A program made the translations under genes and the position numbers. From Thiovulum sp. ES (GTDB lineage Bacteria; Campylobacterota; Campylobacteria; Campylobacterales; Thiovulaceae), in contig AKKQ01000004.1 in the NCBI GenBank assembly GCA_000276965.1, positions 447 to 64,446 on the forward strand: a DNA stretch of 64,000 bases, read 5' to 3'. Below are positions 2 through 63,674 of this stretch, in pieces. Numbering within the stretch: the stretch's first letter is position 1; each line of letters starts with the position of its first letter. The notes under the pieces were generated by a model, which had not been told where the DNA came from, ran no database searches, and saw nothing but the letters and a program-made list of their open reading frames with translations.

Positions 2-2965
2 ACTTTTGCAGAAGAATCAAGCAAAAATCACTCAAAAAAAGTTGGATTTCCAGATATGACAATTCGTCAAAACGATTTCACAATTGGATATATCGAACTG
101 AAATTACCGAACGATAGTTTGGAAAACAAAAATCACAAAAAGCAATTTGACAAATACAAAGATTCACTTGAAAACATAATTTTTACAAATTTGAGAAACT
201 GGCAACTATTTCAGTGGGACGGAAACAGCAAATCGAAAAAAGTGAAAGAGATAGTTTTTAATTTAGAAAATCCAAATTTAGAGAAGTTCAAGAAGTTTCT
301 AAATCTGTTTTTAAGTTATCGGGTGAAAAGTTCGACCTCATCGGTAGAGTTGGCAGTGAATTTGGCAAAAAGAACAAAGATACTTTCAGAAATAATTGAG
401 TCGCTGTTGGAAAATGAAAATGTGCAAATGACAAATTTGAAAGAGAATTTTAGAAAATCTTTACTCCACGAAATAGGAGATAAGAGTTTTGCAAATCTGA
501 TAGCTGAAACATTCACATATTCACTTTTTATAGCATCAATTGTTCATTTACAAAAAGGTGAAAAAGAGAAATTGAGTATCACGACGGCACTCGATTATAT
601 TCCAAAAACAATTCCAATTCTCTACGACCTTTACGATTTATCTAAAAATTTGAGTCGGCAATTTTCAAATGTGAAAAGTTCAGTTGAGTTGATTTTGAAA
701 GAGTTGAATTTAGCAGATTTAGGAAAAATCGTAGCTTCATTTGAGAAAAGTGGAGACCCAATTTTGAATTTTTACGAGCCATTCCTACAAACTTACGACC
801 CACATACAAAAAAGGATAGAGGAGTTTTCTACACTCCGAAAGCTGTTGTTGATTTTTTGGTTCGGGAGACAAATACAATTTTGAAAACTGAACTGAATTT
901 AGAGAATGGATTTTTAGAGAGAAATGTGAAAGTGCTTGATCCTGCGACTGGAACAGGAACTTTTTTGAGTTCGTTAATTAGTTTAGTGCAATCAGAAGTT
1001 GATGAAAATTTTCAAATGATTGGAATTGAGAAAGATAAATTTGCCGATGAGGTGCATGAACACATTTTGAAAAATTTCTACGGATTTGAATTCATGGTTG
1101 CTCCTTACACGGTTGCACATTTGAAATTGTGGTTACAACTCAAATCTCACGGCTTAGACTTAGAAGAAAACGAACGATTTCAAATCTATCTTGCAAACAC
1201 ACTTGACGACCCAAACCGAGAGCCATTGGACAAAATATTTTTTGAAATTGCACAAGAGAGTGAAAAAGCAAAAGCAATTAAAAATGACAAAAACATAATT
1301 GCAATAATTGGAAATCCACCATACAGCGGAACTTCTCAAAATCCGAGCAAAATTACAAACAAAACTGAAAAATCTTACCAATTTGGAAAAACAAAAAATC
1401 TCACTTGGATTGGAAGCCAAATCGAAAATTACAAATGGAATGGCGACAAAAAGTTAGATGAGAAAAATCCGAAATGGCTTCAAGATGATTATGTGAAATT
1501 TATCCGTTTTGCTCAATATCAAATCGATAGCAAAGAGAAAGGTGTCATTTCCTACATTGTGCCACACGGCTTTCTTGACAATCCAACTTTTCGATACATG
1601 AGAAAATCGCTACTTGACTCATTTTCCAAAATTTTCATCGTAAATCTTCACGGAAATTCTACAAAAAAGGAGACGACTCCAAACGGAGGAAAAGATGAAA
1701 ATGTTTTTGACATCAAACAGGGAGTTTCACTTCTGTTTTTGGTGAAGACCTCATCGGCAAAAGATACAAAAATCTATTACGGAGATTTATGGGGACTTAG
1801 AAAAGAGAAATTTCAGAATTTAGAAAATGGAAACTTAGAAAATATTTGCAAAACGGAACTTTTCCCAAAAAGCGACATGTTCTATTTTATTCCACGAGAT
1901 ACAACTTTGGAAACTGAATATTTGGAATTTTGGAGTTTGAAAGATATTTTTGATGTTAAAAATACGGGAATTATTTCAAAAAGAGATAAAATAGTTTATC
2001 AAGATAGCAAAGAAAAGTTACTTAATATTTTAAATGATTTTCACAAATTAGATGAAAATATTATTAGAAATAAATATAACCTTACTCCTGATAGTCGAGA
2101 TTGGAAAGTATCTTTTGCTAAAAATGCAATTGCAAAATTTGGAATTAAAGAAGGTTTTATTATCAAAGGATATTACAGACCTTTCGATACAAAATGGACA
2201 TATTATGTTGAAAAATCAAAAGGTTTTATGGCTTATCCAACATATGATGTTATGAAACATATGTTGAAAGAGAATATCGCTCTTTTAGTTGGTCGTGCTG
2301 GAAATGTTACGGGTTCTGATACTTGGGATATTGTTTTTATTGCTGATTCAATAGTTGATTTAAATATGTTTCGTCGAGGTGGTGAAGTTGTTTTCCCACT
2401 TTACAAATATTCTGATGATGAAAATTCTCTTTTTGAAACAAAAAGCCCAAATTTCACAAATGATTTTTTGGAATTCCGAAAAAAAGAACTCTCAAAATGG
2501 AGTGATGAAGAGATTTTTTACTACATTTACGGTTTGCTTTTTTCTCCAAACTATCGTGAAAAATATCGTGAGTTTTTGCAAACTGATTTTCCAAGAATTG
2601 ATTTCAGTCGTAATATTTCAAAAATCTCAAAAATTGGAAAAGAGTTGGCTGATTTGCATCTTTTAAAACATAAGATTTTTTCGACTCCGAAAAATTGGAA
2701 ACTGAAAAAAGTTGGAACTGATTTTGAATTGAATTTGCCAAAAAAAGCTGAAATATTTTTGAATGGAAAAATCTATTTCAACTCTTCAACATATTTGAGT
2801 GGAATAGCCGATGAGGTCTGGAACTTCCACATTGGGGGCTATCAAGTTTTGTATAAATGGTTGGCTGACCGAAACGGAAAAACTCTTTCAACTGATGATT
2901 TGCTCCACTACATCAAAATTGTTGTTTCACTTCAAGAAACCGTAAAATTGATGAAAAAACTGTAA
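2..2965 (+). CDS. Type IIG restriction-modification enzyme (fused PD-(D/E)xK nuclease and gamma-class N6-adenine DNA methyltransferase); 5' end runs off the window
   Basis: The frame of ORF 56..2965 has no stop back to the window edge (TFAEESSKNHSKKVGFPD-MTIRQNDFTIGYIELK). FPD...IELK fits a PD-(D/E)xK nuclease. DPATGTGTFL is SAM motif I and IIGNPPYSG is NPPY motif IV. The C-terminal HIGGYQVLYKWLADRNGKTLS is typical of YeeA / type ISP-IIG C-terminal domains. Confidence 0.75.
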   Translation, partial: TFAEESSKNHSKKVGFPDMTIRQNDFTIGYIELKLPNDSLENKNHKKQFDKYKDSLENIIFTNLRNWQLFQWDGNSKSKKVKEIVFNLENPNLEKFKKFLNLFLSYRVKSSTSSVELAVNLAKRTKILSEIIESLLENENVQMTNLKENFRKSLLHEIGDKSFANLIAETFTYSLFIASIVHLQKGEKEKLSITTALDYIPKTIPILYDLYDLSKNLSRQFSNVKSSVELILKELNLADLGKIVASFEKSGDPILNFYEPFLQTYDPHTKKDRGVFYTPKAVVDFLVRETNTILKTELNLENGFLERNVKVLDPATGTGTFLSSLISLVQSEVDENFQMIGIEKDKFADEVHEHILKNFYGFEFMVAPYTVAHLKLWLQLKSHGLDLEENERFQIYLANTLDDPNREPLDKIFFEIAQESEKAKAIKNDKNIIAIIGNPPYSGTSQNPSKITNKTEKSYQFGKTKNLTWIGSQIENYKWNGDKKLDEKNPKWLQDDYVKFIRFAQYQIDSKEKGVISYIVPHGFLDNPTFRYMRKSLLDSFSKIFIVNLHGNSTKKETTPNGGKDENVFDIKQGVSLLFLVKTSSAKDTKIYYGDLWGLRKEKFQNLENGNLENICKTELFPKSDMFYFIPRDTTLETEYLEFWSLKDIFDVKNTGIISKRDKIVYQDSKEKLLNILNDFHKLDENIIRNKYNLTPDSRDWKVSFAKNAIAKFGIKEGFIIKGYYRPFDTKWTYYVEKSKGFMAYPTYDVMKHMLKENIALLVGRAGNVTGSDTWDIVFIADSIVDLNMFRRGGEVVFPLYKYSDDENSLFETKSPNFTNDFLEFRKKELSKWSDEEIFYYIYGLLFSPNYREKYREFLQTDFPRIDFSRNISKISKIGKELADLHLLKHKIFSTPKNWKLKKVGTDFELNLPKKAEIFLNGKIYFNSSTYLSGIADEVWNFHIGGYQVLYKWLADRNGKTLSTDDLLHYIKIVVSLQETVKLMKKL

Positions 2966-2972
2966 TTCTCAA

Positions 2973-5157: not shown

Positions 5158-5163
5158 CGATGT

Positions 5164-6456
5164 TTAAAATTTTTCACGATCAGGTTTTACCATTTTTGGC
5201 GGAATTGCATTCATAAATCTCCAGAGTTGATACCAAATTGGAACAGTTGAGAGTCGCACCCAAACAGTTGCTTGACTACCAACCCGTAAATCAGAACCAT
5301 CGGGCCAAGGATCATTTGGGTCTTCTGTAACATAGGCATAATAGAATCCTTGATCATGTGAGATATGTTCAACTCGTTTTACAAAACCTCCGAAAGAACC
5401 AAATTGAATTTTTGGCCAACCACTAACTTGTAATGCAGGCCAACCAAAAAACATAATACGAACAGGCAGACCCTCTTTTACAAGAGGCATATTAAAATCT
5501 GAAACTTGTAAAAGGATAGATTTTTCTGTTACAATTGGTGCAAAGTGAAGAACATCTTCACCCTTTTTTATATATCGATCTTTATCATTTTTAAAGAGCC
5601 GAACAACAAAACCATCTTTTTCCGCAACAACTTCGGATCGCTTGTATCTTTCAATAGTGATGAGGTGTTTTTCCAATTGTGCATTTAAATTTTTCTCTCT
5701 GCTTTCAACTGTAACAATTTTATTTTTTAGTCCAAGAATTTTACTCTCAATTTCACTTAAAAATTTCTGTTGTTCATTTTGAAGAATCTGGGAATTTTTG
5801 TTTGTAATTTCAATTTCAATTCGGATATTCTCTTTTTCACTTTCAGCTTTTACAAAACTATTTTCGCTCTTTTCAAATTCTCGTTTTGACTCAATTCCAT
5901 CTTTGTAGAGTTTTTCGATTCTCTCAAAATTACTTTTTTCAATTTGGTAGTTTTTGTCAATTGATTTTTGCTTGAATTTTAGACTCTCAACTTTTTCACT
6001 ATTTTGAGAAATTTTTTGAGCAAAAACATCAAGACCTTTTTCCAAAATATTTTTTGTTTCAGAAATCTCATTTTCAAGATTTTTAGTCTCAATTTTTGTA
6101 TTTGCTATCTGTATTTCTAAATCTCTTTTGACACTTTCTAATTTAAAAAGATAATTCTTATCCAAATCAAGCATTTTAAAAAGAGGTTCGCCACTTTTTA
6201 CAAACTGATTCTCTTTGACATAAAATTTCTCAATAAATCCATCAACTGGAGCTAAAACAGGATGATGTCGCTCTGTCGGATCAAGTGCTGTAACAAAACC
6301 TTTCCCTTTTACAGTCTGTTCCCAAGGTAAAAAAACCATCGCAAGAAGAATTAAAATTATAGATATTGTGATTAACCAAATTTTCCGAACAATCTTATTT
6401 AAACCAACTTTTTCTAAAGTTTTAAATTCGTAATCTTTAACCATTTTGCTTCTCAC
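5164..6456 (-). CDS. HlyD-family membrane fusion / periplasmic adaptor protein
   Basis: It has an N-terminal TM segment (IWLITISIILILLAMVFL), a lipoyl-like hairpin (APVDGFIEKFYVKENQFVKSGEPLFKM), a long coiled coil and a C-terminal beta-barrel region. Confidence 0.8.
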   Translation of the reverse strand: MRSKMVKDYEFKTLEKVGLNKIVRKIWLITISIILILLAMVFLPWEQTVKGKGFVTALDPTERHHPVLAPVDGFIEKFYVKENQFVKSGEPLFKMLDLDKNYLFKLESVKRDLEIQIANTKIETKNLENEISETKNILEKGLDVFAQKISQNSEKVESLKFKQKSIDKNYQIEKSNFERIEKLYKDGIESKREFEKSENSFVKAESEKENIRIEIEITNKNSQILQNEQQKFLSEIESKILGLKNKIVTVESREKNLNAQLEKHLITIERYKRSEVVAEKDGFVVRLFKNDKDRYIKKGEDVLHFAPIVTEKSILLQVSDFNMPLVKEGLPVRIMFFGWPALQVSGWPKIQFGSFGGFVKRVEHISHDQGFYYAYVTEDPNDPWPDGSDLRVGSQATVWVRLSTVPIWYQLWRFMNAIPPKMVKPDREKF

Positions 6457-8290: not shown

Positions 8291-9046
8291 TCAGATTGAG
8301 AATTCTCCGATATTGTTTAAAACAAGATCGGGCTTTTCGACCTCATCGAGGGGTTGTAACTCTTCGAGAGATTTAAATTTTCCACTAAGAACAAAAACAG
8401 TTTTCATTCCTAACTCATTAGCTCCACGAAGATCTCCTTTTAAATCATCAGAAATCATAGTAATTTTTGAAAAGTCATTTTCTCCTATAATTTGTAGAGC
8501 TTTTTTATAAAAACTCTTGCTAGGTTTTCCAACAACTCTGTATTCACTATTTGTAGCGAATTTCAACATTTCCAAAATTGCACCAACTCCAGGGTAGCGA
8601 CGACCACCTTTTGAGTAAATAGAAGTTCCATGCATTCCAATAAGTTTTGGCTTTTTGCTCAGCAAAACCTCTATTATCTTAGAGTATTCAAAAGCTGTGT
8701 AATCCTCTTTCACTCCAATCACAACAGCTTCTGGATTTCGCGATGAGGTGCAAATTCCCCGCTTTTTTAAAATTTCCACAAATTTAGGATGTCCAAAAAC
8801 ACATGCCTTATTTGAAATCACTTCATCCAAAACCATGAGCGGATCAAGATACTTCTCTTTTGGAATTTTCAATCCAACCGAATTTAAATATTCCAAAAAA
8901 TTATCGCTCTCCTGTTTTGTATTGTTTGTAACCACCACATATGGAATAGATTCCCTGTTTAACTTTTCTATCAACTCAATAGAACCAGAAATTGGTTTTT
9001 TTTGCACATCATCAATTAGAGTTCCTTGAACATCAATAAAAAGCAT
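8291..9046 (-). CDS. HAD-superfamily hydrolase, subfamily IIA (NagD-like)
   Basis: MLFIDVQGTLIDD is the DxxGT nucleophile motif. VVTNNT and MISDDLKGDLRGANELGMKTVFVLSG are the C-terminal HAD motifs. Confidence 0.75.
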   Translation of the reverse strand: MLFIDVQGTLIDDVQKKPISGSIELIEKLNRESIPYVVVTNNTKQESDNFLEYLNSVGLKIPKEKYLDPLMVLDEVISNKACVFGHPKFVEILKKRGICTSSRNPEAVVIGVKEDYTAFEYSKIIEVLLSKKPKLIGMHGTSIYSKGGRRYPGVGAILEMLKFATNSEYRVVGKPSKSFYKKALQIIGENDFSKITMISDDLKGDLRGANELGMKTVFVLSGKFKSLEELQPLDEVEKPDLVLNNIGEFSI

Positions 9047-9055: not shown

Positions 9056-9622
9056 TTATTGGACTTTCATTACTTCACTCTCTTTAGCTTTAAAAACCTC
9101 ATCGACTTGAGCTACAAAAGTGTCCGTAAATTTTTGAATTTGGTCTTGTGCAGATTTAGACTCGTCTGCTGTTAAAACCTTATCTTTTTCAAGTTTCTTG
9201 ATAGAGTTGTTTCCTGTTTTTCTGTGATTTCTGATAGAGACTTTTGCATTGTCAGTCATCACTTTTGCATGTTTCACACTCTCTTGTCTCTGTTCTGTTG
9301 TCATTGGTGGAAAAAATAGTTTGATTTGCTCACCGTCATTATTTGGATTTACTCCAATATTTGCAAGTTGAATCGCCTTCTCAATATCACCAAGAATATT
9401 TTTTTCCCATGGAGAAATTGAAATTGTTGTCGCATCATTTGCAAGAACTGTTGCTACTTGAGAAAGTTTTGTTTTTGCACCGTAGTAATCGACAAAAATC
9501 CCGTCAAGAATTGAAATTTGAACTTTTCCTGTTCTAATCGTCTTGAAATTTCTTTTGAGAGCATCAACACTCTCCTCCATTTCCATTTTTACCTCTTCGT
9601 AAATCTCTTCTAACTCTTCCAT
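9056..9622 (-). CDS. frr: Ribosome recycling factor
   Basis: 188 aa. [19 protein letters not shown]...ISISPWEK...[11 protein letters not shown] is a typical Frr pattern. Confidence 0.93.
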
Positions 9623-9728: not shown

Positions 9729-10556
9729 ATGAATATTGGAAAATACAACACTCTAAAAATAGACGAACTGACGGAATTTGGTTTTTATTTAGTTGATGAA
9801 AAAAATGAGCGGGTTCTTTTACCAAATGTCTACACAACGGAAAATATGACAATTGGCGATGAGGTCGAAGTTTTTATTTACACGGATAGTGAAGACCGAA
9901 GAGTCGCGACAACTTTAAAACCAAAAGGAGTTGTTGGAGATTTTGTGGCTCTCGAAGTCGTGGATATTGCAAATTTTGGAATTTTTATGGATTGGGGTTT
10001 GCCTAAAAATCTTTTGATTCCAAAAAAATTCCAAGAGGGACACTACGAAATTGGTGAAATTCGAGTTGTCAAAATTCTTGAAGACAAGAACACAGGTCGA
10101 GTTTATGGAATTGAGAAATACAAAGATTTGCTTTCCAAAAATGTTAAAGGCTTGAAGCGAAATGAAGAAGTTGATTTAATCGTTACAAAAGAGACAGAAA
10201 TCGGTTTTAAAGTTTTGATAAATGAGAAATTCGAGGGACTCGTTTTTAAAAACAGAGTTTTTGGAAATTTGAAAGTTGGTAACAAAACAAAAGGATACAT
10301 CGAGACAATTCGGGAAGATAAAAAAATTGATGTGGTTCTTCAGCCAATTGGTAAAAAATCATTTTCACTTGGTGCGGATAAAGTTTTTGAAATTTTAGAA
10401 CAAAACGGTGGAAAAATGAATTTCACTTACAAAAGTAATCCTGAAGAAATCAGTCGTGTTTTTGGATTAAGTAGAAAACTTTTCAAGCGGTCTTTAACTG
10501 AATTACTCGAAAACAAGAGAATAAAGTTAAACGACAACAGCATCGAAAAGCTTTAG
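9729..10556 (+). CDS. S1-like RNA-binding protein, CvfB/YitL family
   Basis: MNIGKYNTLKIDELTEFGFYLVDEKNERVLLPN, followed by repeated S1-like modules and a C-terminal winged-helix-like tail. The ORF is open from 9660. Confidence 0.7.
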   Translation: MNIGKYNTLKIDELTEFGFYLVDEKNERVLLPNVYTTENMTIGDEVEVFIYTDSEDRRVATTLKPKGVVGDFVALEVVDIANFGIFMDWGLPKNLLIPKKFQEGHYEIGEIRVVKILEDKNTGRVYGIEKYKDLLSKNVKGLKRNEEVDLIVTKETEIGFKVLINEKFEGLVFKNRVFGNLKVGNKTKGYIETIREDKKIDVVLQPIGKKSFSLGADKVFEILEQNGGKMNFTYKSNPEEISRVFGLSRKLFKRSLTELLENKRIKLNDNSIEKL

Positions 10557-27021: not shown

Positions 27022-27040
27022 TTCCCGATGAGGTCGGGAA
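27022..27040. terminator. Hairpin ttcccga-tgagg-tcgggaa containing the only intergenic copy of CGATGAGGTC
   Basis: 7-bp stem between the convergent hldE (+) and dus (-) genes. The 10-mer occupies 27026-27035. Confidence 0.55.
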
Positions 27041-48922: not shown

Positions 48923-49507
48923 TTAAGATATGAGAGAAAAAAGTTCATCTTCTCCATCTACAAAGTGAATATTTTCTAAATCTTTTTTGCAAATCATTTT
49001 TTCACTTAGCATCTGTTGAAGAAAATTTTCAATTGGTTCATGGAATTTTGTATCGAGAAAGAAAATTTTAACACCATTTTGCAATTTACCATGCTGGAGT
49101 TTCTCTAAAACTTCACCGACCTCATCGAAAGTTCCAAAACCACCACCCGCAATTACAAAATATTGAGAATACTTCATCAAATACTCTTTTCGCAGAGCAT
49201 AGTCGTAAAAGTGAAAACCGAGAGAGACATACGGATTCATATTCTGCTCATGCGGTAATTTCACATTTAAGCCAATCGATTCAATACCAATTTCAAAAGC
49301 TCCACGGTTTCCAGCTTCCATAACTCCACCGCCTCCACCAGTTAAGATTTTAAAACCTTTTTTGGCAAATTTCTTTGAAATAGCATAAGTCTCTTTGTAA
49401 TAGTGGGAATCTTCTGAAACTCTGGCACTTCCAAAAATTGAAACAAGTTTTCCAATAAATGGTCTTAAGACTGGTGAAATATCACACTCATTTTTTACAT
49501 CTATCAT
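48923..49507 (-). CDS. LOG family / TIGR00730 Rossmann-fold nucleotide-binding protein
   Basis: TGGGGGVMEAGNRGA and AGGGFGTFDEVGEV are LOG family motifs. Confidence 0.85.
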   Translation of the reverse strand: MIDVKNECDISPVLRPFIGKLVSIFGSARVSEDSHYYKETYAISKKFAKKGFKILTGGGGGVMEAGNRGAFEIGIESIGLNVKLPHEQNMNPYVSLGFHFYDYALRKEYLMKYSQYFVIAGGGFGTFDEVGEVLEKLQHGKLQNGVKIFFLDTKFHEPIENFLQQMLSEKMICKKDLENIHFVDGEDELFSLIS

Positions 49508-51283: not shown

Positions 51284-52347
51284 TATTTACCTCCTAAAAA
51301 AGAATCGCTTGTTTTCTTTGCACCGAAATTATTTTTCCACTCTTTTTGATTCCAACCGTGAAGAGCATTTACTTTTTCCATGAGATAATCGAAATCTTCA
51401 GGAAGTAAGGCTTGGTCTCCATCAGATAATGCACAACTTGGACATGGATGAACTTCAATAATTGCACCGTCCGCACCAACTGCCATACCTGCATAAGCAA
51501 GAGCAGAAACAAATTCTCTACGACCTGCTGAGTGTGATGGATCAACAATTACAGGCAAGTGAGTCTCTTTTTGGAGATATGGAACAAGAGCAACATCAAG
51601 TGTATTTCGCATTGCAGTTTCATAACTTCGGACACCTCGAAGAGCAATAATTACATCATTTAACCCACCGCTAAGAACATATTCAACACTCATCAAATGC
51701 TCTTTTACAGTTGAAGCAATTCCGTTTTTAAGAATAACTGGTTTTCCAAGTTTTCCAATCTCTTTAAGAAGAGCGAAATTTTGCATATTTCTAGCACCAA
51801 TTTGCACAACATCAGTGTATTGATAAACGAGATCGATGTCTTGTTCGCTCATCAATTCCGTTACGATTGGTAGTCCCGTTTCTCGTCGAGCTTCCGCCAA
51901 CATTTCGAGACCCTCTTTACCTTTACCTTGGAAAGAGTATGGACTTGTTCGAGGTTTAAATGCACCACCTCGCAACATTGTAGCACCCGCTTTTTTCACC
52001 GATTTCGCAATACCGATGAGGTTCTCGTAAGTATCAACTGAACAAGGTCCAGCAATAACACTTTTATGACCACCACCGATTTTTACACCGTTTATATCAA
52101 TAATTGAGTCGTCTGGATGAAAATCCCGACTCGCTTTTTTGTATGGAACAGACACTTCTAATACCTTTTCAACACCTGAGAGAGTTTTTAACGGTTTGCC
52201 AGAAAGGTCTTGTTTGTCGCCAATAATTCCGACAACCGTTTGATATGCACCTTTTGATACTGTAACATCATGTCCCCAATCTTTAATCTGTTGAGAAACA
52301 CTCTGAATATCTTCTTCAGTAGCACCATTTTTCATAACTAAAATCAT
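51283..52347 (-). CDS. aroF: 3-deoxy-7-phosphoheptulonate (DAHP) synthase, type I-beta with N-terminal regulatory domain
   Basis: An ACT/ferredoxin-like N-terminus, then AGPCSV...[14 protein letters not shown]...DPSH. Confidence 0.88.
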
Positions 52348-53178
52348 TTAAAGCCTTTCTAAAAGAAGAGAAACCCACTCGTTCTTATCTTCTCTTTTTA
52401 CCAATTTAAATTCTTTAAAATTTTGTAAAACAAAATCGACCCGATTATGTAGAATTCCAGAAAGTAGAAGTTTTCCATTTTCTGCCACTCTATTTTTTAA
52501 GTCATTTGAAATCGCAATTATAATATCTGGAATGATATTTGCGATTACAAAATCATACTTGTTTTCTGTATTTCCCGCAGAGCCAACCCAACTATTTCTA
52601 AAAGTCAAATCATTTTTAGCAAAATTATCTTTTGCACTTTCAACGGCGACCTCATCGACATCACATAAATCTACAATTGCACCAATTTTTGCGGAAACAA
52701 TTGAAAGAATTCCACTACCTGTTCCAACATCTAAAACTGTTTTGTTCTCTAAATTGTTTTCGGAAATTGCTTTGACACAAAGTGCGGTAGTTTCGTGATG
52801 ACCTGAACCAAATGCAAGTGCAGGATCAATTAAGATATTTGAAAAGCCTTCTTTGGGCTGATGCCAACTCGGATAAATGTAGAAATTTTGAATTTCTACG
52901 GGCTGGACACTCTGTTTAAAACTCTCGATCCAGTCTCTATTCTCTTTCTCTTCTACAGAAATTTCAACACCTATTTCAGTTTGAAAATGCTCGGAAATCT
53001 TTTTTTGAAATTGTTGGATTCCCCAAACAGTATCGTCGAATGGATCGGAACTCCGTAGAATAATCTTATCTTCAAATTCCTCTAAACCAATTTCCGAAAT
53101 TTGAAGAATGAAATCAAGAAATAGGTCGTAGTGCGAGAGAGGAGTAACTACAAGTTCGTAGTATTTTCTCTCACTCAC
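52348..53178 (-). CDS. prmA: Ribosomal protein L11 methyltransferase
   Basis: IDPALAFGSGHHETT and VLDVGTGSGILS. GTG start. Confidence 0.9.
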   Translation of the reverse strand: MSERKYYELVVTPLSHYDLFLDFILQISEIGLEEFEDKIILRSSDPFDDTVWGIQQFQKKISEHFQTEIGVEISVEEKENRDWIESFKQSVQPVEIQNFYIYPSWHQPKEGFSNILIDPALAFGSGHHETTALCVKAISENNLENKTVLDVGTGSGILSIVSAKIGAIVDLCDVDEVAVESAKDNFAKNDLTFRNSWVGSAGNTENKYDFVIANIIPDIIIAISNDLKNRVAENGKLLLSGILHNRVDFVLQNFKEFKLVKREDKNEWVSLLLERL

Positions 53179-53594: not shown

Positions 53595-54803
53595 TCACAA
53601 AATAATCACCCTAACTATTTCACCCGCCTTTTTATCTCCACAAGTTTCGTTAGAAAATAATAAAGCTGGTGAATCTAGCATGTTTCTTAAAATAGCACTT
53701 GTGCCAATTTTTTTATTTTTAAAACCAATAGAAATACTACCATCTTTAAAATAAAGATTACAAGCAGTAATTTCAGTCTTTTTAGATCGTTTGTAAAAAT
53801 CTTCTCTTAAAACAGCACCTGTAAAAGTATTTTGAAATTCTAACCCTAATCGGTTTCTAATTAGTGGCAAAAGATACAAAATTGCTGTAATTGTAGAAGA
53901 GTAAGCAAAACCTGGAAGAGAGAGAAGAACTTTTTCACCTTTTTTAGCAACAAGAATATGCTGACCAGGTTTAATTTTTACACCATGGAAAAGAATTTCA
54001 AAACCCAGTTTCTTAACAACATCTCGCACAAAATCGTAATCACCAACACTTACACCGCCTGTTGTAACGATGAGGTCAGAAGATTTCATTGCATTTTGAA
54101 AAGTTTCTAACATCTCACTTTTACTATCACCAACACTACCAAGCTGAATTGCTTCACCTCCATTTTTAGAAACTAAGCTTTCTAAAGTGTAATTATTAGA
54201 ACTACGAATTTGAGATTCTCGAGTTTTCTCTTCACCGAGAAGTAGCACCTCATCGCCAGTTGTAAAAATTGAGACTTTAGGTTTCACGGCGACTTTTGGG
54301 GAAACAATGTTTAATTCCGCCATGATTCCAATTTCAAAAGGAGAAATTTTTGTCCCTTTCTCAATAATAATTTCATCTCTTTTCCAAACTTCACCAACTG
54401 GTCGGACTCCATTTCCAATAGAAACTTTTTGACGAATATAAAGCCTATTTTCAAGAACTTCAACATTCTCAATTGGCACAAGTGTATCGCTCCCAAAAGG
54501 CATTGGAGAACCTGTAAAAGTTTTTATTGCTATTCCTTTTACTAAAGTTGGAATTTGAGAAGCACCTGCTGGATTATCATTTTCAGTGATTTCAATAAAT
54601 TCAGATTGTTGATCCAAAATTTGAATTGCGAAACCGTCAAGTGCTGAAGTTTGATGTTTTGGAGAATTCTCTTTTGCAATAATATCTTCAGCAAGAATTC
54701 GGTCAAGTGAGTTTTGGAGAGGGACTCTCTCCGATACAACTCTATCAACTTTTAGAGTTTCTAAAAGCTCGATGGATTTTTCCCAAGAAATAAACTTTCT
54801 CAA
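53595..54803 (-). CDS. moeA: Molybdopterin molybdotransferase
   Basis: MoeA N/central/C domain layout and TTGGVSVGDYDF. TTG start. Confidence 0.85.
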   Translation of the reverse strand: MRKFISWEKSIELLETLKVDRVVSERVPLQNSLDRILAEDIIAKENSPKHQTSALDGFAIQILDQQSEFIEITENDNPAGASQIPTLVKGIAIKTFTGSPMPFGSDTLVPIENVEVLENRLYIRQKVSIGNGVRPVGEVWKRDEIIIEKGTKISPFEIGIMAELNIVSPKVAVKPKVSIFTTGDEVLLLGEEKTRESQIRSSNNYTLESLVSKNGGEAIQLGSVGDSKSEMLETFQNAMKSSDLIVTTGGVSVGDYDFVRDVVKKLGFEILFHGVKIKPGQHILVAKKGEKVLLSLPGFAYSSTITAILYLLPLIRNRLGLEFQNTFTGAVLREDFYKRSKKTEITACNLYFKDGSISIGFKNKKIGTSAILRNMLDSPALLFSNETCGDKKAGEIVRVIIL

Positions 54804-54805: not shown

Positions 54806-57553
54806 TTACTCGTCTCCCGTTTTAAATTCGTTTAATTTGTGATCCAATTCTGAAGAGAGTTTTTCAAGAAGAATAAAAAGTTTTTGAATATCTTCAATAT
54901 CAAACATATTTTGTTGAGACAAAGAATTTACTTTTAAGATGGAATCAGTTAGTTCTGAAATTGTTTTTGCGGATCGTTTTGCATCTTCCATATTGCTTGT
55001 TGAAGCATTTAATGTTTGATTCATCAATTCGATACTTTTTTGAGTAGATTCCTCGACATTTTCAGAAACACCTTTTATTTTTGTAATAAATTGATGTTTT
55101 CGGTTCATTTTTTCAGCAACATCTTGAACACTTTCAACAACAGCATTGATTGTTTTATCGATTGTTCCGAGAGATTCCTGTGTCTGTTCAGCTAATTCAC
55201 GAATCTCCTCAGCAACAATTGCAAAGCCTTTTCCATGCTGTCCAGCTCTAGCAGCTTCAATAGCAGCATTTAATGCAAGAAGATTTGTCTGTTCAGCAAT
55301 TTCATCAATTTTTGTAATTACTTCTTGAACATTTTGAGTCTTCTTACTTGTAGCTGTCAAATCTTCCGCCATTTGTAAATCTCGAACGGAATCACTTCTT
55401 ACCTCTTTTATAAGTTCGTCAATTGCATTTTGAGAAACGATGAGGTCTTCATATGCTTGTGAAATTTTGTCTTTTGTAGTCTCAGAGTCTGTAAGAGACA
55501 TTCCTAAAGTAGCTTTTACAATACCCATTTTGTTTGCAATATCAACAATTGTTCCGCTTGTGGTTGATATTGCTCTCTGAATTTGATCAAGATTTGTATT
55601 TAAATTTTCTCGATTTCCAACTGTTTCTCGGCTTGTATTTTTTGCATCTTGAATAGTAGATTGAACAAGTTCAATAAATGTATTTAAACTACTTTGGGCT
55701 TTTCCAAGCTCATCTTGTGTAGTAATTTCTAATCTTGTATCAAGTTCTTTAAAGTGTGTAGAAGCTCTCTCAAATTCAGAAACTGCTTTTGTCATCGAAC
55801 GGAAAATCAAGTAAGAAATAAGTAGAGAAAGAACAAGAAGACCAATAAAAATTCCATTTAAAATAGCAAAACCAACTTTAATTTCTGTGCTAATTTTAAA
55901 AGTGTAATCTAAAATGTTTTTAATAATATAGTTTTCTAACTCTTTGTAAGCATTAATTTCAGAGGAAACAACTTTTTCCCAATGTTCCTGTTTTATATTC
56001 ATTCCACCAAAAAGTTCTGTTTGTTGAATTGCCTTTTTCATATTCTCAATTGCAGTAAATTGATCTTTTTCCAAAACAAGCTTTCTGAATTTTTTAGAAA
56101 TTTTGGAAGGTGCATCAACTGTAAAATTATGAACAACTTTTTCTAATTCTGCATCAAGTTGTAAAAGCGATCCATGGGCGATAATAGAAATCTTATTCTC
56201 TTTAAAAGCACTTAAAACAATACTTTGTTCTCTTGAAAGCAACTCTTTTATCTCTAAAATTTCATAGTAGCTTAAGAGTGTTCGGAAACTATTACTATTT
56301 AAATTTGATGAGAAAATTGCATAGTGAATTATGTCAAGAGCTTCGTGTGCAAAAGAGTTGTAGAATTTATTGATTTTGTCAGTCCCAATTTGAAAAGACA
56401 AAATATCTTTTCTAACCTCATCAAGTTTTTCCAGTTGTTCATTAAAATGATATAGTTCTTTTGACACATCTTTAGAAAAAGCTCTTTTTGAGATTGAAGA
56501 GAGTTCTGAAATCGCTTTGTCAAGTTTTAGATGTTCGCCTTTCAAAAAATCTTTTAAAAGCTCGTTTCGTGAATTGTAAAAATCTCCCGAAACATATCTT
56601 TCACTCTGAATAGCATTTAAAACATTTCCTAATTTAAAGCTAAGAATAATTAAATTTGTTCTTTTTCTTGATAAATCTTTTTCGATAAATTTTTCGACTT
56701 CAGTAATTTTATCCATTATGTAACTTGATTGAGTATCCCAATCTCTAGGATTTACATTAAATCCACCGATAGAGTTGTTTCTAATAATTGTGTCTTCAAG
56801 TCTTTTTACATTTGACAAAAGCTTGTTGTTTAACAAAAGCTTTTTTTGTAATTTTGTTTGGCTATCTGCAAACATGTTGAAACTTTTTATAAAACTATCA
56901 TGCTCAACAATGAATTTTCCAAAATTTTCTCTATCTTCATTTGAGAATTGATTTTTTGAAAAAAGAATAGAACCAACTGTTTTTTGTAGCGAAAGAGTCT
57001 CTTTTGCATTTAAAAAACTAGCATATGCTGAAAACATCTTTATTGTTTTCGGATCATTTGCTATAAATGAGAATGAACCAATTGCTCTTAAAAAAGAGTT
57101 TATTATTTTTGTGTAGTGATTTCTAGCTTCAACAACACTAAATTTTAAGCCACTAATCTGTAATCGTTCATCTACTAACTTACTTATTTCAATAACAGTA
57201 TTGTCAATACTCTTTTTAACATTTGCGGGATAATTATTTCTGTTTAGAGATGACAGTGTACTCTTGAACTTATTTATAGTTTCATTGCTACTATTTCTCT
57301 GTTTTCTCAACTCTTCTCGAAAAGCATTCCCATTCTGATAAAGAAAAGATGTTGTATAAGCTCTCTCTCTCTCCAAACTAGAAATAACTTCAGCCATAGT
57401 GGAAGATAATTTTGCAATATCATTGAGATTATCCATCTCATCAACAACAGCTTTTTTCTCAAAGCTTGTAAAAGCTAAAAGAACAGCCAAACCAATAGTC
57501 GGCAAAAGAAAAATTGCCAATAACTTTGTTCGTATGCTTAATTTTCCCAACAT
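54806..57553 (-). CDS. Methyl-accepting chemotaxis protein with ~530-aa sensor region containing NIT-like segment(s)
   Basis: Two TM segments, [15 protein letters not shown] and [12 protein letters not shown] (NIT-like), and the signalling hairpin [38 protein letters not shown]. Confidence 0.85.
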
Positions 57554-59400: not shown

Positions 59401-61215
59401 ATGGATTTTAGAAATTTAGCAGTTATTGCCCACGTTGATCACGGAAAAACAACACTTGTTGATGGACTTTTAAAACAATCTGGAACTTTCTCGGCACACG
59501 AAGAAGTCGATGAAAGAGTAATGGATAGTAATGCACTTGAAAAAGAGCGAGGTATTACAATTCTTTCAAAAAACACAGCTATTACTTACGGTGATAGTAA
59601 AATTAATATTATTGATACTCCAGGACATGCCGACTTTGGTGGAGAAGTTGAACGAGTTTTAAAAATGGTAGATGGTGTATTACTTCTTGTTGATGCTTAC
59701 GAGGGAGTAATGCCACAAACAAAATTTGTTGTGAAAAAAATGTTGGGATTAGGTTTAAAGCCAATTGTTGTTGTAAATAAAATTGATAAACCGACTGCTG
59801 AACCAGATAGAGTTGTTGATGAGGTTTTTGACCTATTTGTGCAAATGAATGCGACAGACGAGCAATTAGAATTTACAACAGTTTATGCATCTGCTAAAAA
59901 TGGAATCTCTAAATTAGAAGTTGATGGTGAAGATCAAGATTTTAAACCACTATTTGACACAATTTTATCAGATATTCCAAAACCAACGGGAAGTGCGGAA
60001 AATCCAACTCAGTTACAGGTTTTCACACTTGATTATGATAATTATGTTGGAAAGATTGGAATTTCTAGGATTTTCAACGGGAGAGTTGCACGAGGACAAA
60101 ATGTAACTCTTGCAAAAGCTGATGGCGAACAAGTGAAAGGAAGAATTTCAAAACTTATTGGATTTAAAGGTCTTCAAAGAGTAGAAATTGATGAAGCAGA
60201 AGCAGGTGATATTGTTGCAGTAGCTGGACTTGAAACTGTTGATGTTGGAGATTCACTTGTTGATCCAAATAATCCAATGCCACTTGATCCACTTCACATT
60301 GAAGAACCGACTCTTTCAGTTGTTTTTGCAGTAAATGACTCTCCACTTGCAGGACTTGAGGGAAAAAGTGTTACTTCAAACAAAATTCAAGAGCGACTAG
60401 CAAAAGAGATGCAAACTAATATTGCGATGAGGTATGAGCAAATTGGTGAGGGAAAATTCAAAGTTTCTGGACGGGGCGAATTACAAATCACAATTCTTGC
60501 GGAAAATATGAGACGAGAAGGTTTTGAGTTCTCAATTTCTCGACCTGAAGTTATTACTAAAGAAGTTGATGGAGTTCATCTTGAACCATTTGAACATTTA
60601 GTTATTGATGTGCCTGAAGATTTAAGCGGAACTGTTATCGAAAGACTTGGAAAACGAAAAGCTGAAATGACTTCTATGATTCCAATGGGTGCTGGACAAC
60701 AGAGAGTTGAGTTTGAGATTCCTGCTCGAGGTTTAATTGGTTTCCGAGGACAATTCTTGACTGATACAAAAGGTGAAGGAATCATGAACCACTCTTTCTT
60801 AGAATACCGACCACACAGCGGAACTGTTGAAAGCCGAGGAAATGGTGCATTAATTTCAACTGAAACTGGTGATGCGATTGCATATTCACTAAATACAATT
60901 CAAGAACGAGGTGTTCTGTTTATTGCTCCACAAACAAAAATCTACCCAGGTATGATTATTGGTGAGCATTCACGACCAAATGATTTAGATGTGAATCCTG
61001 CAAAAGGGAAAAACCTTACAAATGTTCGTTCTTCTGGTGCAGATGATGCAATCAAACTTGTTCCTCCACGAGATTTAAGTTTAGAAAAAGCACTTGAGTG
61101 GATTGAAGATGACGAACTTCTTGAAATCACTCCTCAAAATATTAGAATTAGAAAGAAAATTCTTGAGTCAAATTTAAGAAAAAGAGCGGAGAAAAATGCA
61201 AAAGGTGGAAAGTAA
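59401..61215 (+). CDS. typA: Translational GTPase TypA/BipA
   Basis: [26 protein letters not shown] and NKID. The ORF is open from 59365. Confidence 0.94.
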
Positions 61216-61252: not shown

Positions 61253-61939
61253 TTAAAAAGTTTCCAAAATTTGCTGAACAACACTTTTTGGATTTTCAGA
61301 TTTATAAATTGGTCTGCCAACAACAATAAAATCACTCAACTCATTTTTTGCCATTTCCAAATTTGCAACTCTTTTTTGATCATCACTACTTTCGCCAAAA
61401 GGTCTAATTCCTGGTGTGAGTGTCAAAAATTCCGATGAGGTCGCCTCTTTTATTTTTTGACTCTCCCAAACAGATGAGACAACTCCATCAATTCCGCTTT
61501 GAAAACTCCATTTTGAAAACTCTAAGCTTTTTGAAATAATTTCACTTTGATAAACATCAGAAAATTCATCTTCAGTAAAAGAGGTGAGAGCGGTTACTGA
61601 AAGAACAAGAGGTCTTTTTTCAAATTTTTGGAGTCTCTCCATAACTGACCTCATCGCACGAATACCAGCAGAAGCATGAATATTAAACATATCAACTTTT
61701 CGGGTTTCGGCAATCTCTTCACTCGCATCTGCCATCGTGTTTGGAATGTCATAAAGTTTTAAATCAAGAAAAATTTTCAAGTTTGGATCAATAGATCGAA
61801 TTTCGTCTAAAATTTTCCAACCATCCCGAATAAAACTCCGAAATCCAACTTTAACCCAAACTGGCAAACCCTTAATCTCTCTAACGAGTTTTAAATTTTC
61901 TGAAAGATTTTCTCTATCAAGTGCAACAACTAAATTCAT
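61253..61939 (-). CDS. pyrF: Orotidine 5'-phosphate decarboxylase
   Basis: LVVALD, FLDLKLYDIPNT and VVGRPI. Confidence 0.92.
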   Translation of the reverse strand: MNLVVALDRENLSENLKLVREIKGLPVWVKVGFRSFIRDGWKILDEIRSIDPNLKIFLDLKLYDIPNTMADASEEIAETRKVDMFNIHASAGIRAMRSVMERLQKFEKRPLVLSVTALTSFTEDEFSDVYQSEIISKSLEFSKWSFQSGIDGVVSSVWESQKIKEATSSEFLTLTPGIRPFGESSDDQKRVANLEMAKNELSDFIVVGRPIYKSENPKSVVQQILETF

Positions 61940-62315: not shown

Positions 62316-63674
62316 CTATTTCTCCAAAGTCTCAATAAATTTAAAGAGTGTTCGGACACCTGTTCCACTAGCTCCTGCAGGATTAAACCCCCAACCTTTT
62401 TCGTTAAAAGCAGGTCCAGCAATATCGATGTGAATCCATTTTTTCTTGTTCTCTTTATCGATAAATTCGTTCAAGAAAAGTCCGGCCGTAATTGCTCCAC
62501 CGTATCGACTATTTGCAATATTTGAAATATCAGCAATACTGCTTTTTAGAGTTTCTCGCAAAAATCTATTGAAAGGTAGAGTTGCTAAATATTCTCCACC
62601 ATCTCGACCAGCTTTTAAAACTCTCTTTTTTAGACTCTCATTATTTCCCATAATTGCTGAAGTGAATTGTCCAATTCCAACAACAGATGCACCTGTTAAA
62701 GTTGCGATGTCAAAAATGTAGTCAAAATCTTTTTCTGTTTTTTGTGCATAAAGAAGAGTGTCGCCAAGAACAAGCCGACCTTCAGCATCAGTGTTTCCAA
62801 TTTCAACAGTTTTTCCGTTCATTGCCGTCAAAACATCATCAGGTTTGTAAGCATTTCCGCCAATCATGTTTTCAGCAAGACCTAAAAATCCGACAACTTC
62901 TACATTTAAATTCATTTCAGAAACAGCTTTCATAACTCCGAGAACAGCAGAAGCACCGCTTTTATCAGACTTCATGTTTTTCATATATTCCGCAGGTTTT
63001 AAACTCAAACCGCCACTATCGTAAGTTAGACCTTTTCCAATTAAAAGAATTTTCTTTTTTGCATCTTTTGGTCGGTGTGCCAATTTTAGTAAAACTGGAG
63101 GATTTACCGAAGCTCGACCAACAGCTGAAAACATTCCCATTCCTTCAGCTTCAATTTCCGCAGAATTTAATCGAGTAATTTCCAACTTATTGCTTTTTGA
63201 GAGTTCTTCACCTAAATTTGCGACACTTTCAGGATACATCTCTTGAGGCATAGAATTCACAATATCTCGAGTAAAATTTGTAGCATCAACAATTGCCTGA
63301 ACTCGTTTTACAGATTTCTTTGCACCTTTGAATTTTTTGACTAAAAGAGTTTGAAAAGGCGACTCTTTTTTTTCGCTCAAATATTTATCAAAAGTGTAAT
63401 TTGAAAGTAGAATTCCTTCAAGAATTTCAGAAAAGTTTTCTGTTTCAGAAATTGAAACCGTAGCGACCTCATCGCTTGATAGCATTCCGATTTTTACAGC
63501 ATTTTGTAAGTTTTTAATTGCTTCGCCACCAGCAAATCTAAATTCCATAGAGTCAGAAATATTCTCAACTTTTTGGATGATTTGCTTTTTTTTCAAATCA
63601 AATTTCGTTTCATTCTCACTAAAAAGAATTTGGAAAGAACCAGAAAGACTTTCAACTATTTCAATTTTCAATAT
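62316..63674 (-). CDS. pepA: Leucyl aminopeptidase (M17)
   Basis: NTDAEGRL, VGKGLTYDSGG and DIAGP. The start is uncertain. TTG 63674 has an AGGA RBS and gives a typical MKIEIV N-terminus. ATG 63743 would extend into the structured region. Confidence 0.9.
   Translation of the reverse strand: MLKIEIVESLSGSFQILFSENETKFDLKKKQIIQKVENISDSMEFRFAGGEAIKNLQNAVKIGMLSSDEVATVSISETENFSEILEGILLSNYTFDKYLSEKKESPFQTLLVKKFKGAKKSVKRVQAIVDATNFTRDIVNSMPQEMYPESVANLGEELSKSNKLEITRLNSAEIEAEGMGMFSAVGRASVNPPVLLKLAHRPKDAKKKILLIGKGLTYDSGGLSLKPAEYMKNMKSDKSGASAVLGVMKAVSEMNLNVEVVGFLGLAENMIGGNAYKPDDVLTAMNGKTVEIGNTDAEGRLVLGDTLLYAQKTEKDFDYIFDIATLTGASVVGIGQFTSAIMGNNESLKKRVLKAGRDGGEYLATLPFNRFLRETLKSSIADISNIANSRYGGAITAGLFLNEFIDKENKKKWIHIDIAGPAFNEKGWGFNPAGASGTGVRTLFKFIETLEK

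Follow-up and report, generated by a model that had tools for sequence, protein, structure and literature searches.

An asymmetric DNA word, GATGAGGT/ACCTCATC, is repeated about once per 1.2 kb through a 64,000-nt stretch (the window) of Thiovulum sp. ES, a giant sulfur bacterium; the window is the sample on which this analysis is centred. The word is maintained as DNA rather than as a peptide or a codon effect, it is a trait of the whole Thiovulum clade, and two copies lying within about 0.5 kb of each other almost always face opposite ways. It may be a tag of self DNA for transformation, comparable with the DUS (DNA uptake sequences) of Neisseriaceae and the uptake signal sequences (USS) of Pasteurellaceae, and read strand-specifically.

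Abundance and composition of the word

Both strands of the window were scanned for exact matches. The core was found 53 times, 29 copies on the + strand and 24 on the - strand, compared with 1.20±1.07 (maximum 4) in 100 dinucleotide-preserving shuffles. The perfect 10-mer CGATGAGGTC occurs 32 times against 0.01 expected. When the k-mers of the window were ranked, the leading 9- to 12-mers were the core and its extensions. The base before the core is C in 46/53 copies and T in the remainder, while C follows the core in 34/53. Information is confined to 10 positions, with little beyond the core and its two flanks, and no helically phased AT-tract was seen around the 53 copies. An earlier note, made from the letters alone, had counted 53 cores (29 forward, 24 reverse), 32 perfect 10-mers and the same flanking bases, and had estimated about one core by chance; exact search and shuffling gave the same picture. 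Its list of coordinates also stands except for the last 10-mer, which occupies 63465..63474 and does not start at 63466.

Core variants with one altered position number 33 in the window against 26.5 expected over all positions, which is no overall enrichment and gives no decay series. By position the numbers are small: variants at core positions 1, 2 and 8 are nearly absent (1 vs about 8.4 expected), and those at positions 3, 4 and 6 are enriched 2-3-fold. The longer, structured and mostly intergenic unit typical of repetitive extragenic palindromes (REP) or miniature inverted-repeat transposable elements (MITE) was not found, as only 10 positions are informative and 52/53 copies lie in open reading frames (ORFs).

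Reading frames and codon use

The gene set of the window consists of 55 non-overlapping ORFs of our own choice, covering 94% of its length. With this set the 53 copies read as Asp-Glu-Val (26), x-Leu-Ile (15), Thr-Ser-Ser (8), Met-Arg (2) and Pro-His (1), and one is intergenic (27027); relative to the coding strand, 28 are sense and 24 antisense. All five stop-free frames are thus occupied, and the sole unused frame contains TGA. This frame tally agrees exactly with that of the earlier note, which had concluded that the DNA word and not a peptide was maintained and had proposed a codon-aware expectation as a check. Such an expectation, computed on the window by shuffling synonymous codons within each gene so that proteins and codon usage were kept, gave 8.0±2.5 cores (maximum 17) compared with 52 in coding sequence, and 0.18 10-mers compared with 31. 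Shuffling the order of codons left 1.8 cores.

The spelling of the commonest reading points the same way. Of 30 Asp-Glu-Val tripeptides in the window, 26 are spelled GATGAGGT, a spelling expected in about 24% from codon usage. All 26 use GAG, although it is the rarer of the Glu codons (30%), and 17 of them end in GTC, which makes up 11% of Val codons. The tripeptide itself is about 5-fold over its amino-acid expectation (30 vs about 6, our own estimate from codon totals); therefore, the word shapes the proteome. These results confirm that the word is kept as DNA, and that it is neither a peptide nor a codon effect.

Distribution in the Thiovulum clade

Relatives were picked as a graded series by MutS2 identity and traced to contigs, which gave a clade sample of about 0.24 Mb, comprising ten independent loci and L210, a locus of a close relative that overlaps the window region. 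Core density is 0.4-0.9 per kb in each traced clade locus, where 0.2-0.5 copies per locus are expected, and 0.54-0.83 per kb in the window, L001, L201, L202, L204, L205 and L208. In the closed 1.72-Mb genome CP091137.1 (L201) 14 sites were found in 22 kb, and the metagenome-assembled genome GLC1 holds 14 sites in L001 and 12 in L202. The remaining loci are metagenome contigs: L204 (10 sites in 14 kb), L205 (12 sites), L208 (8 in 14.6 kb), L216 (15 in 16 kb), L217 (5) and L218 (3 in 7 kb). Word-rich loci extend down to 57% MutS2 identity. At 52%, the next outgroup is unenriched, L206 having a single copy in 22 kb and L207 none in 13 kb, and 79 other Campylobacterota typA loci are likewise unenriched, with 0-5 copies each. 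The comparison with related genomes that the earlier note had proposed therefore separates rich clade loci from a poor outgroup and poor loci elsewhere in the phylum: the word is a trait of the whole Thiovulum clade and ends at the clade border. A metagenome scan with the pattern CGATGAGGTCN{10,40}GACCTCATCG yielded no Thiovulum-clade member among the at least 120 matches listed, nearly all of which were chance matches (0.5-0.73 G+C).

The flanks differ between lineages. ES and the closely related L210 share C-core-C, whereas GLC1 has C/T-core-A, L201 has Y-core-T, L216 has T-core-T and L204 has T-core-G/T. The DUS of Neisseriaceae show lineage 'dialects' (PMC3630211), and the Thiovulum flanks match this pattern.

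Orientation of neighbouring copies

No strand skew was detected in any of the ten loci; in seven of them the two orientations number 29:24 (window), 8:6, 7:7, 6:6, 5:5, 5:7 and 7:1 (pooled chi-square 5.6, 7 df, p 0.59; a locus-level figure without replication origin or terminus context). The two orientations are interleaved along every locus, and this interleaving is not random. In the first seven loci 86/116 neighbouring pairs are opposite, compared with 58.7±5.2 by label permutation (0/20,000), and after removal of neighbours closer than 300 bp the count is still 69/99 against 49.9 expected. Over ten loci it is 100/136 against 69.8. The effect acts at short range: of the pairs up to 500 bp apart in ten loci, 33 are opposite and 1 is same-orientation, where 16.5 same-orientation pairs are expected (0/10,000 permutations), and with the window excluded the counts are 19 and 0. 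By distance, a single same-orientation pair falls in the 0-250-bp class and none in the 250-500-bp class; beyond 500 bp their rate is about 28-48 per kb of distance. Opposite pairs are enriched about 1.6-fold below 500 bp, are convergent as frequently as divergent, and lie 21 to 487 bp apart.

The rule is also seen within genes. Neighbours in the same gene alternate in 19/22 cases in the window, and the four copies in ORF 56-2965(+) alternate strictly. Among pairs up to 500 bp apart, 19/19 within genes and 7/8 between genes are opposite. The spacing of all window copies is slightly more even than random (coefficient of variation 0.83, P 0.10), and within each orientation class the coefficients are 0.63 and 0.64, compared with 0.87 after permutation (P 0.016 and 0.027). 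A general avoidance of short direct repeats, as by replication slippage, was rejected as the cause, since other 8-mers of the window at 20-500 bp form direct and inverted pairs at 2693:1881 (1.43:1).

The orientations had earlier been described as balanced, and a strong strand skew had been named as evidence against an uptake signal. The balance holds for the totals and no such skew exists in the seven loci, but at short range the orientations are strongly anti-correlated. A second copy facing the same way is redundant over about 0.5 kb, and a copy facing the opposite way is not. Therefore, the two orientations are not interchangeable, and the simplest inference is that the reader of the word is polar or specific to a single strand. 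We found no orientation rule of this kind described for a self-DNA tag (DUS or USS).

Gain and loss of sites

ES and L210 share 91.8% nucleotide identity over 22 kb. There, 12/15 ES sites are kept in L210, compared with 54% of random aligned 8-mers (P 0.038), and 3 are found only in ES. One further site is found only in L210 and differs from its ES homologue at 5/12 positions. In Neisseria-type systems, DUS copies too divergent to have arisen by point mutation were regarded as a sign of recombinational introduction by Treangen et al. (PMC2397512).

An alignment of eleven MutS2 genes, including that of the window (EJF07660.1, 735 residues), contains one widely common site in the conserved ..VDEVEL.. 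(window 41998), while the remaining sites are lineage-specific and accompany amino-acid changes, such as QQLIEK replaced by QDLIAK in ES, or PEKSKT by PTSSDE in L208. One column, ancestrally GD(K/R)VRY, has turned into GDLIRY with the antisense word in two lineages and into GDEVVY with the sense word in another. Both typA sites of ES are missing from the typA of L001.

Hairpins and presumed islands

In the cave lineages (L201, L202 and L001) intergenic inverted pairs 21-34 bp apart lie between convergent genes and fold as 10-14-bp hairpins (-13 to -19 kcal/mol, z -4.6 to -6.1). Such intergenic hairpin-forming pairs are rare in the ES window, where the intergenic copy at 27026-27035 stands inside a short hairpin between convergent genes (-10.8 kcal/mol, z -2.5). 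In five other clade loci with gene calls, 9/56 sites are intergenic, where about 7% of the DNA is non-coding.

Motif density in core genes and in recently acquired islands was another comparison that had been suggested. The word is scarcer in both presumed islands, significantly in L202, where a restriction-modification and Bro-N/helix-turn-helix region holds 1 site against 6.0 expected (P 0.017), and not significantly in window 2966-7405, where the one site has atypical flanks and 3.9 are expected (P 0.10). The window region, possibly acquired DNA, contains a Bro-N gene (4164-5075), an HlyD-type adaptor (5164-6456), a fragment resembling an ABC bacteriocin exporter (6437-7405) and small unmatched ORFs. 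The island of L202 that is poor in the motif (14.4-22.2 kb) is likewise filled with cassettes of Bro-N, helix-turn-helix and pRha genes. When viral contigs were scanned for Thiovulum phages with the Bro-N protein as query, the only matches were two weak ones of 39-46% identity.

Uptake machinery and literature

The window consists of housekeeping genes of campylobacterotal type, among them alaS, typA, glnD, a pglB-like gene, mutS2, rpsA, eno, nusA and chemotaxis genes. No record identical to its AlaS was found. The inventory of competence genes recommended in the earlier note gave a divided answer, as none lies within the window and a set is annotated in the genus. Type IV pilus genes are present in all six Thiovulum genomes, and the many surface filaments have been proposed to be pili (Bizic et al. 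2022, PMC9938260). In the automatic annotation of the supplements to that paper, the Movile strain has ComEA, DprA and a ctsD/pilQ-type secretin, strain ES has ComEC, ComEA and ComFC, and other Thiovulum strains have DprA. The words 'competence' and 'transformation' occur 0 times in its main text.

Full-text literature searches returned no report of an uptake sequence in Campylobacterota, in keeping with the earlier statement that none is established there, and a 2025 survey treats uptake sequences as confined to Neisseriaceae and Pasteurellaceae (10.1101/2025.10.24.684340). No earlier report of the Thiovulum word was found, the 2012 ES single-cell genome paper (PMC3502928) being outside the search. 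A literal search for CGATGAGGTC and its variants gave only primers.

Comparison with known systems

Like the DUS of Neisseriaceae (GCCGTCTGAA and dialects, with the minor pilin ComP as receptor), the Thiovulum word is an asymmetric 8-12-mer at about 1 per kb, with coding and non-coding copies in several frames, no replichore skew and clade dialects. Close inverted pairs form terminator hairpins, the host has type IV pili, and new copies are too divergent for point mutation in both systems (PMC2397512 for DUS; the site with 5/12 differences here). DUS are also scarce in acquired DNA, as the word may be, to judge from its two presumed islands. The word differs from DUS in its phylum, its unrelated sequence and its strong short-range orientation rule. 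Like the USS of Pasteurellaceae (AAGTGCGGT and ACAAGCGGT types), it occurs about once per 1.2 kb, mostly in genes and equally in both orientations. The proteome accommodates it, as it does USS (PMC2817400), and one copy per fragment seems to be enough. Unlike USS, it has no phased AT-tract flank in the window copies, and its orientations are not interchangeable, whereas uptake through USS is described as independent of orientation and position (PMC1939737), a contrast that is drawn from the published description of uptake. It also departs from both systems in position: 1/53 copies is intergenic in ES, whereas in Neisseriaceae and Pasteurellaceae about half of the copies fall inside predicted terminators (10.1101/2025.10.24.684340). 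NTS/Ssn of Neisseria (PMC11893778) sets a precedent, as it is an oriented repeat, is recognised on single-stranded DNA and modulates transformation; unlike the Thiovulum word, NTS forms a hairpin about 30 bp long, is clustered and 98% intergenic, and lowers transformation.

Within the phylum itself, other ways of discriminating incoming DNA, or of taking it up without discrimination, are established. RAATTY of Campylobacter jejuni is a degenerate 6-bp palindrome that carries a methyl mark and is not hyper-abundant, whereas the Thiovulum word is long, exact and asymmetric. Campylobacter jejuni discriminates DNA by CtsM methylation of this site, and ComB-mediated uptake in Helicobacter pylori is sequence-independent.

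Interpretation

We give about an even chance to the reading that the word is a self-DNA tag for transformation of the DUS/USS kind, read strand-specifically. It is favoured because of the magnitude of the enrichment, the disregard for codons and amino acids, the clade limit and dialects, the turnover of sites, the terminator pairs, the absence of skew and the uptake gene set. The earlier note had already likened the word to DUS and USS; upkeep at the DNA level, density, lack of skew, dialects and turnover agree with that likeness, and the orientation rule is foreign to it.

Under this reading, DNA released by relatives would be taken up through the type IV pilus, ComEA, ComEC and DprA, and fragments bearing the word would be favoured at some step. 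Such a bias, combined with homologous recombination, could establish about one copy per 1.2 kb where proteins tolerate it and sometimes where proteins change. The favoured step would read the word with polarity, most simply on the entering single strand or from one direction, and each copy would then serve one strand only. Short imports are typical of the related Helicobacter pylori. Within a short recombination tract of about 0.5 kb, a second copy facing the same way would add nothing and one facing the opposite way would add something, and this redundancy at the level of the tract could produce both the exclusion of same-orientation copies and the surplus of inverted pairs at loose spacing. 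Inverted pairs that lie closest together would double as hairpin terminators.

Several points weigh against a transformation tag. To our knowledge, Thiovulum is not known as transformable, and the genus is without a pure culture. The clade sample amounts to about 0.24 Mb, and the island depletion figures come from two small regions only. AddA/RecB-like genes are annotated in Thiovulum sp. ES, and so a reader of the Chi type is available. Uptake by H. influenzae is reported to be independent of orientation (PMC1939737), and the orientation rule misfits such orientation-blind recognition of duplex DNA; either the reading step differs, or the word serves another polar process. A more specific proposal, which we put forward tentatively as a possibility, is that the tag is strand-specific, read on single-stranded DNA or directionally, during uptake or after it, so that each strand would require a copy of its own and the genome would hold two interleaved and self-avoiding sets of sites, and that it is one case of a wider, so far undescribed Campylobacterota habit of lineage-specific hyper-abundant words. 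The palindrome of twelve other loci and the asymmetric words of a few Sulfurimonas-type loci, described below and not shared by Thiovulum, would be further cases.

Another polar process could be recombination or repair. A Chi-like signal would be read on one strand by an AddAB/RecB-like helicase-nuclease during two-ended break repair, perhaps between the genome copies of the very large cell, or on linear incoming DNA, and both orientations would then be needed everywhere. The orientation rule implies polar recognition and fits equally well a reader that works from both ends of linear DNA, and AddA- and RecB-like genes would supply such a reader. Known Chi sequences are G/T-rich, like the Thiovulum word. 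Chi is also short, asymmetric, over-represented in core genes and recognised on one strand. One Sulfuricurvum locus (L032) shows moderate enrichment and a strong skew (1:7) of a related word, TCGATGAGG, although this skew may be an effect of codons and gene strand. We nevertheless consider a Chi-like signal unlikely and rank it below an uptake tag because skew is missing, the enrichment is so large, inverted pairs act as terminators and same-orientation neighbours are excluded. All characterised Chi sites that we know of are co-oriented with replication, and Chi is skewed to the leading strand, whereas skew is absent in all loci tested here. The enrichment of the word is 50-fold to >1000-fold compared with a few-fold for Chi in E. 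coli, inverted terminator pairs and lineage dialects are traits of DUS and USS, and imperfect recognition should cluster sites of the same orientation, whereas the Thiovulum word is self-avoiding within each orientation.

It is likewise improbable, in our estimate, that the word resembles HIP1 (GCGATCGC) of cyanobacteria in being the product of a system for DNA modification, mismatch repair or biased conversion, such as an orphan methyltransferase that has a short-patch repair activity, without any role in uptake. HIP1 is a hyper-abundant octamer spread over a whole clade, genic in several frames, whose function has long been debated; one source (10.64898/2026.06.24.733823) describes it as hyper-abundant and conserved across the phylum with a function still being worked out. 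The rarity of one-off variants at the end positions of the core (1, 2 and 8) is consistent with such a system, and methyltransferase genes occur in these loci (window 56-2965 and a D12-class gene in L201). HIP1 is palindromic and tied to cognate methyltransferases, whereas the Thiovulum word, being asymmetric, marks both strands only where two copies are present. A repair bias explains neither the exclusion of same-orientation copies nor the enrichment of opposite ones, and it leaves the species-specific flanks and the new site with 5/12 differing bases unexplained. Moreover, restriction-modification genes vary between strains, and the core is constant across the clade.

It is highly improbable that the word is a polar signal organising the chromosome, as KOPS/FtsK or SMC-loading sites do, or that it acts on RNA or translation. 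The alternation of neighbours within genes could suit either, and the sense copy contains the Shine-Dalgarno-like GAGGU, the antisense copy resembling the 3' end of 16S rRNA. KOPS needs a replichore skew, and none was seen, with orientations interleaved throughout. The RNA-level reading, whether as a Shine-Dalgarno-like signal or as pairing of sense and antisense copies, was rejected, as the two kinds of copy are equally common (28:24), the exclusion follows distance and not the transcript (within and between genes alike), and many copies have no partner on the same transcript. Finally, an origin of the word in chance, in codon usage or in a recurring peptide is refuted even though half of the copies encode Asp-Glu-Val, as dinucleotide, Markov and synonymous-codon controls fail by 6-fold to >1000-fold, five stop-free frames are used, and Asp-Glu-Val is itself over-represented and spelled almost only with the word.

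Other abundant words in Campylobacterota

Twelve loci of 12-22 kb from Campylobacterota, Sulfurospirillum and Sulfurimonas among them (L004, L012, L030, L033, L034, L036, L038, L042, L056, L060, L061 and L069), each hold 4-11 copies of the palindrome TACATGTA (consensus cTTTACATGTAAAg), where 0.04-0.7 are expected. Its copies lie mostly in ORFs (71/90) and have the look of HIP1; a palindrome marks both strands at once. Among the Thiovulum loci examined it occurs once in L001 and in none of the others. A literature search with TTACATGTAA gave nothing relevant, and no paper on the palindrome was found.

Asymmetric words are abundant in four loci without copies of the palindrome, each with <0.8 copies expected. 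L041 has the word GCATGTGGAA, with tgGCATGTGGAA 11 times (3+:8-); L026 and L044 have TGCGTGAGc 13 and 8 times; and L066 has CTGCGTTT 13 times (3+:10-), a word also seen in L065 and L068. Some of these look strand-skewed, unlike the Thiovulum word. In Sulfuricurvum sp. PC08-66 (L032), TCGATGAGG, which overlaps the Thiovulum word, occurs 8 times (1+:7-) against 0.39 expected, and in L014 CGATGAGG occurs 4:1 against 0.37. These two may represent a Chi-like relative of the word that is skewed, or an effect of codons and gene strand. Taken together, the loci hint that lineage-specific hyper-abundant words are common in the phylum, though they are single-locus samples and some of the words are skewed.

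Other repeats are of a different kind. In Helicobacter bilis ATCC 51630 (L024) and Helicobacter sp. (L054), AGATTCTA occurs 43 and 23 times and AGAATCTA 28 and 26 times, where about 1.6-1.8 are expected per locus of about 22 kb; copies are often tens of bases apart, and the two words probably form a dispersed repeat family. Regular short-spaced repeats, with a period of 30 in L063, 21-24 in L059 and about 29-78 in L079 and L047 (word ACGTGAAAC), look tandem or CRISPR-like and unrelated to the motif.

Neighbouring genes and catalogue of copies

ORF 56-2965(+), of 969 aa, combines an N6-adenine methyltransferase domain with a C-terminal specificity domain of Type ISP (PF02384, PF18135, E 4e-72). 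It lacks the nuclease and the helicase that a complete Type ISP enzyme contains, and it begins 55 bp from the window edge, so that an upstream partner may be cut off. Type ISP enzymes read asymmetric sites and act on head-to-head pairs. A link between this gene and the word was set aside, since restriction-modification genes are strain-variable whereas the core does not change, and since genomes normally avoid restriction targets and do not amplify them. In the closed Thiovulum genome, a D12-class (Dam/CtsM-type) N6-adenine DNA methyltransferase stands among core genes (L201 2406-3407); it is of interest as Campylobacter jejuni discriminates incoming DNA by the same class of methyltransferase.

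Window 32849-37921(+) encodes a signalling module of SiaA/SiaC type. It begins with a SiaA-like protein of 1051 aa with two solute-binding domains and a PP2C phosphatase, followed by SiaC (36014-36388), a DUF6272 protein (36403-36951) and an adenylate/guanylate cyclase-domain protein (36968-37921), which takes the place of the diguanylate cyclase in the Pseudomonas module. The sole RNA gene found in the window, tRNA-Leu (CAA) at 30161-30247(+), is without a motif copy. All 53 copies are listed in Table 1.

Table 1. Copies of the word in the window, with host ORF, orientation to the coding strand and residues read. CGATGAGGTC is the perfect 10-mer; kept and absent refer to L210.
Coordinates	Strand	Copy	Host ORF	Orientation	Residues	Remarks
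334..343	-	CGATGAGGTC	56-2965(+)	antisense	TSS	
1045..1054	+	CGATGAGGTG	56-2965(+)	sense	DEV	
1747..1756	-	CGATGAGGTC	56-2965(+)	antisense	TSS	
2809..2818	+	CGATGAGGTC	56-2965(+)	sense	DEV	
5658..5667	+	TGATGAGGTG	5164-6456(-)	antisense	HLIT	sole copy in presumed island 2966-7405
8339..8348	-	CGATGAGGTC	8291-9046(-)	sense	DEV	
8741..8750	+	CGATGAGGTG	8291-9046(-)	antisense	TSS	
9095..9104	-	CGATGAGGTT	9056-9622(-)	sense	DEV	
9857..9866	+	CGATGAGGTC	9660-10556(+)	sense	DEV	
11532..11541	+	CGATGAGGTC	10585-13062(-)	antisense	DLIE	
12049..12058	-	TGATGAGGTC	10585-13062(-)	sense	DEV	
12483..12492	+	CGATGAGGTA	10585-13062(-)	antisense	YLIA	
15357..15366	+	CGATGAGGTC	15235-16089(-)	antisense	DLIA	inverted pair with 15391
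15391..15400	-	CGATGAGGTC	15235-16089(-)	sense	DEV	inverted pair with 15357
17447..17456	-	CGATGAGGTC	17081-18412(-)	sense	DEV	
17687..17696	+	TGATGAGGTC	17081-18412(-)	antisense	TSS	
19178..19187	+	CGATGAGGTC	18630-19838(+)	sense	DEV	
20630..20639	-	CGATGAGGTC	alaS 20460-22982(+)	antisense	TSS	
21216..21225	-	CGATGAGGTC	alaS 20460-22982(+)	antisense	DLIG	
22349..22358	+	CGATGAGGTT	alaS 20460-22982(+)	sense	DEV	
22572..22581	-	CGATGAGGTT	alaS 20460-22982(+)	antisense	NLIG	
24267..24276	+	TGATGAGGTA	pglB-like 23341-25539(-)	antisense	YLIT	
24703..24712	-	CGATGAGGTT	pglB-like 23341-25539(-)	sense	DEV	
25880..25889	-	CGATGAGGTC	25616-27016(+)	antisense	DLIV	
26224..26233	+	CGATGAGGTT	25616-27016(+)	sense	DEV	
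26938..26947	+	CGATGAGGTC				with 27026, sole same-orientation pair <500 bp in 10 loci
27026..27035	+	CGATGAGGTC				sole intergenic copy, between convergent ORFs 25616-27016(+) and 27047-27976(-)
27344..27353	-	CGATGAGGTA	27047-27976(-)	sense	DEV	
28696..28705	+	CGATGAGGTC	27979-29007(-)	antisense	TSS	
32391..32400	+	CGATGAGGTT	31957-32694(-)	antisense	NLIV	kept
32998..33007	+	CGATGAGGTC	32849-36004(+)	sense	DEV	inverted pair with 33038; kept
33038..33047	-	CGATGAGGTG	32849-36004(+)	antisense	HLIE	inverted pair with 32998; kept
35401..35410	+	CGATGAGGTC	32849-36004(+)	sense	DEV	core kept
39687..39696	-	CGATGAGGTC	eno 38454-39722(-)	sense	DEV	kept
41998..42007	+	CGATGAGGTC	mutS2 40832-43039(+)	sense	..VDEVEL..	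common to 8/10 Thiovulum-clade MutS2 genes
42350..42359	-	CGATGAGGTC	mutS2 40832-43039(+)	antisense	DLIA	ES and L210 only (others QQLIEK etc.)
44797..44806	+	TGATGAGGTG	43062-44957(-)	antisense	SPHQ	absent
45306..45315	-	CGATGAGGTC	44964-46481(-)	sense	DEV	absent
46154..46163	+	CGATGAGGTC	44964-46481(-)	antisense	DLID	kept
47402..47411	-	CGATGAGGTC	rpsA 46994-48736(-)	sense	DEV	core kept
49118..49127	-	CGATGAGGTC	48923-49507(-)	sense	DEV	core kept
49700..49709	+	CGATGAGGTC	49517-51061(-)	antisense	TSS	absent
52014..52023	+	CGATGAGGTT	51283-52347(-)	antisense	NLIG	kept
52648..52657	-	CGATGAGGTC	prmA 52348-53178(-)	sense	DEV	core kept
54068..54077	+	CGATGAGGTC	53595-54803(-)	antisense	DLIV	
54246..54255	-	CGATGAGGTG	53595-54803(-)	sense	DEV	
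55438..55447	+	CGATGAGGTC	54806-57553(-)	antisense	DLIV	
56414..56423	-	TGATGAGGTT	54806-57553(-)	sense	DEV	
59817..59826	+	TGATGAGGTT	typA 59365-61215(+)	sense	DEV	typA of L001 without motif
60425..60434	+	CGATGAGGTA	typA 59365-61215(+)	sense	AMRY	typA of L001 without motif
61433..61442	+	CGATGAGGTC	pyrF 61253-61939(-)	antisense	TSS	
61647..61656	-	CGATGAGGTC	pyrF 61253-61939(-)	sense	AMRS	
63465..63474	-	CGATGAGGTC	62316-63743(-)	sense	DEV	

Implications

The orientation rule is a new mechanistic clue, pointing to a polar reader and a length scale of about 0.5 kb. The word could also help to recognise metagenomic contigs as those of Thiovulum and to flag foreign DNA within them. If the word is indeed an uptake tag, Thiovulum would be a third lineage with sequence-specific uptake, evolved independently of Neisseriaceae and Pasteurellaceae. 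This case would come from an environmental sulfur oxidiser and not from a host-adapted pathogen, implying that such tags evolve repeatedly. The word would then also serve as a genomic marker of gene flow and species borders in an uncultured genus.

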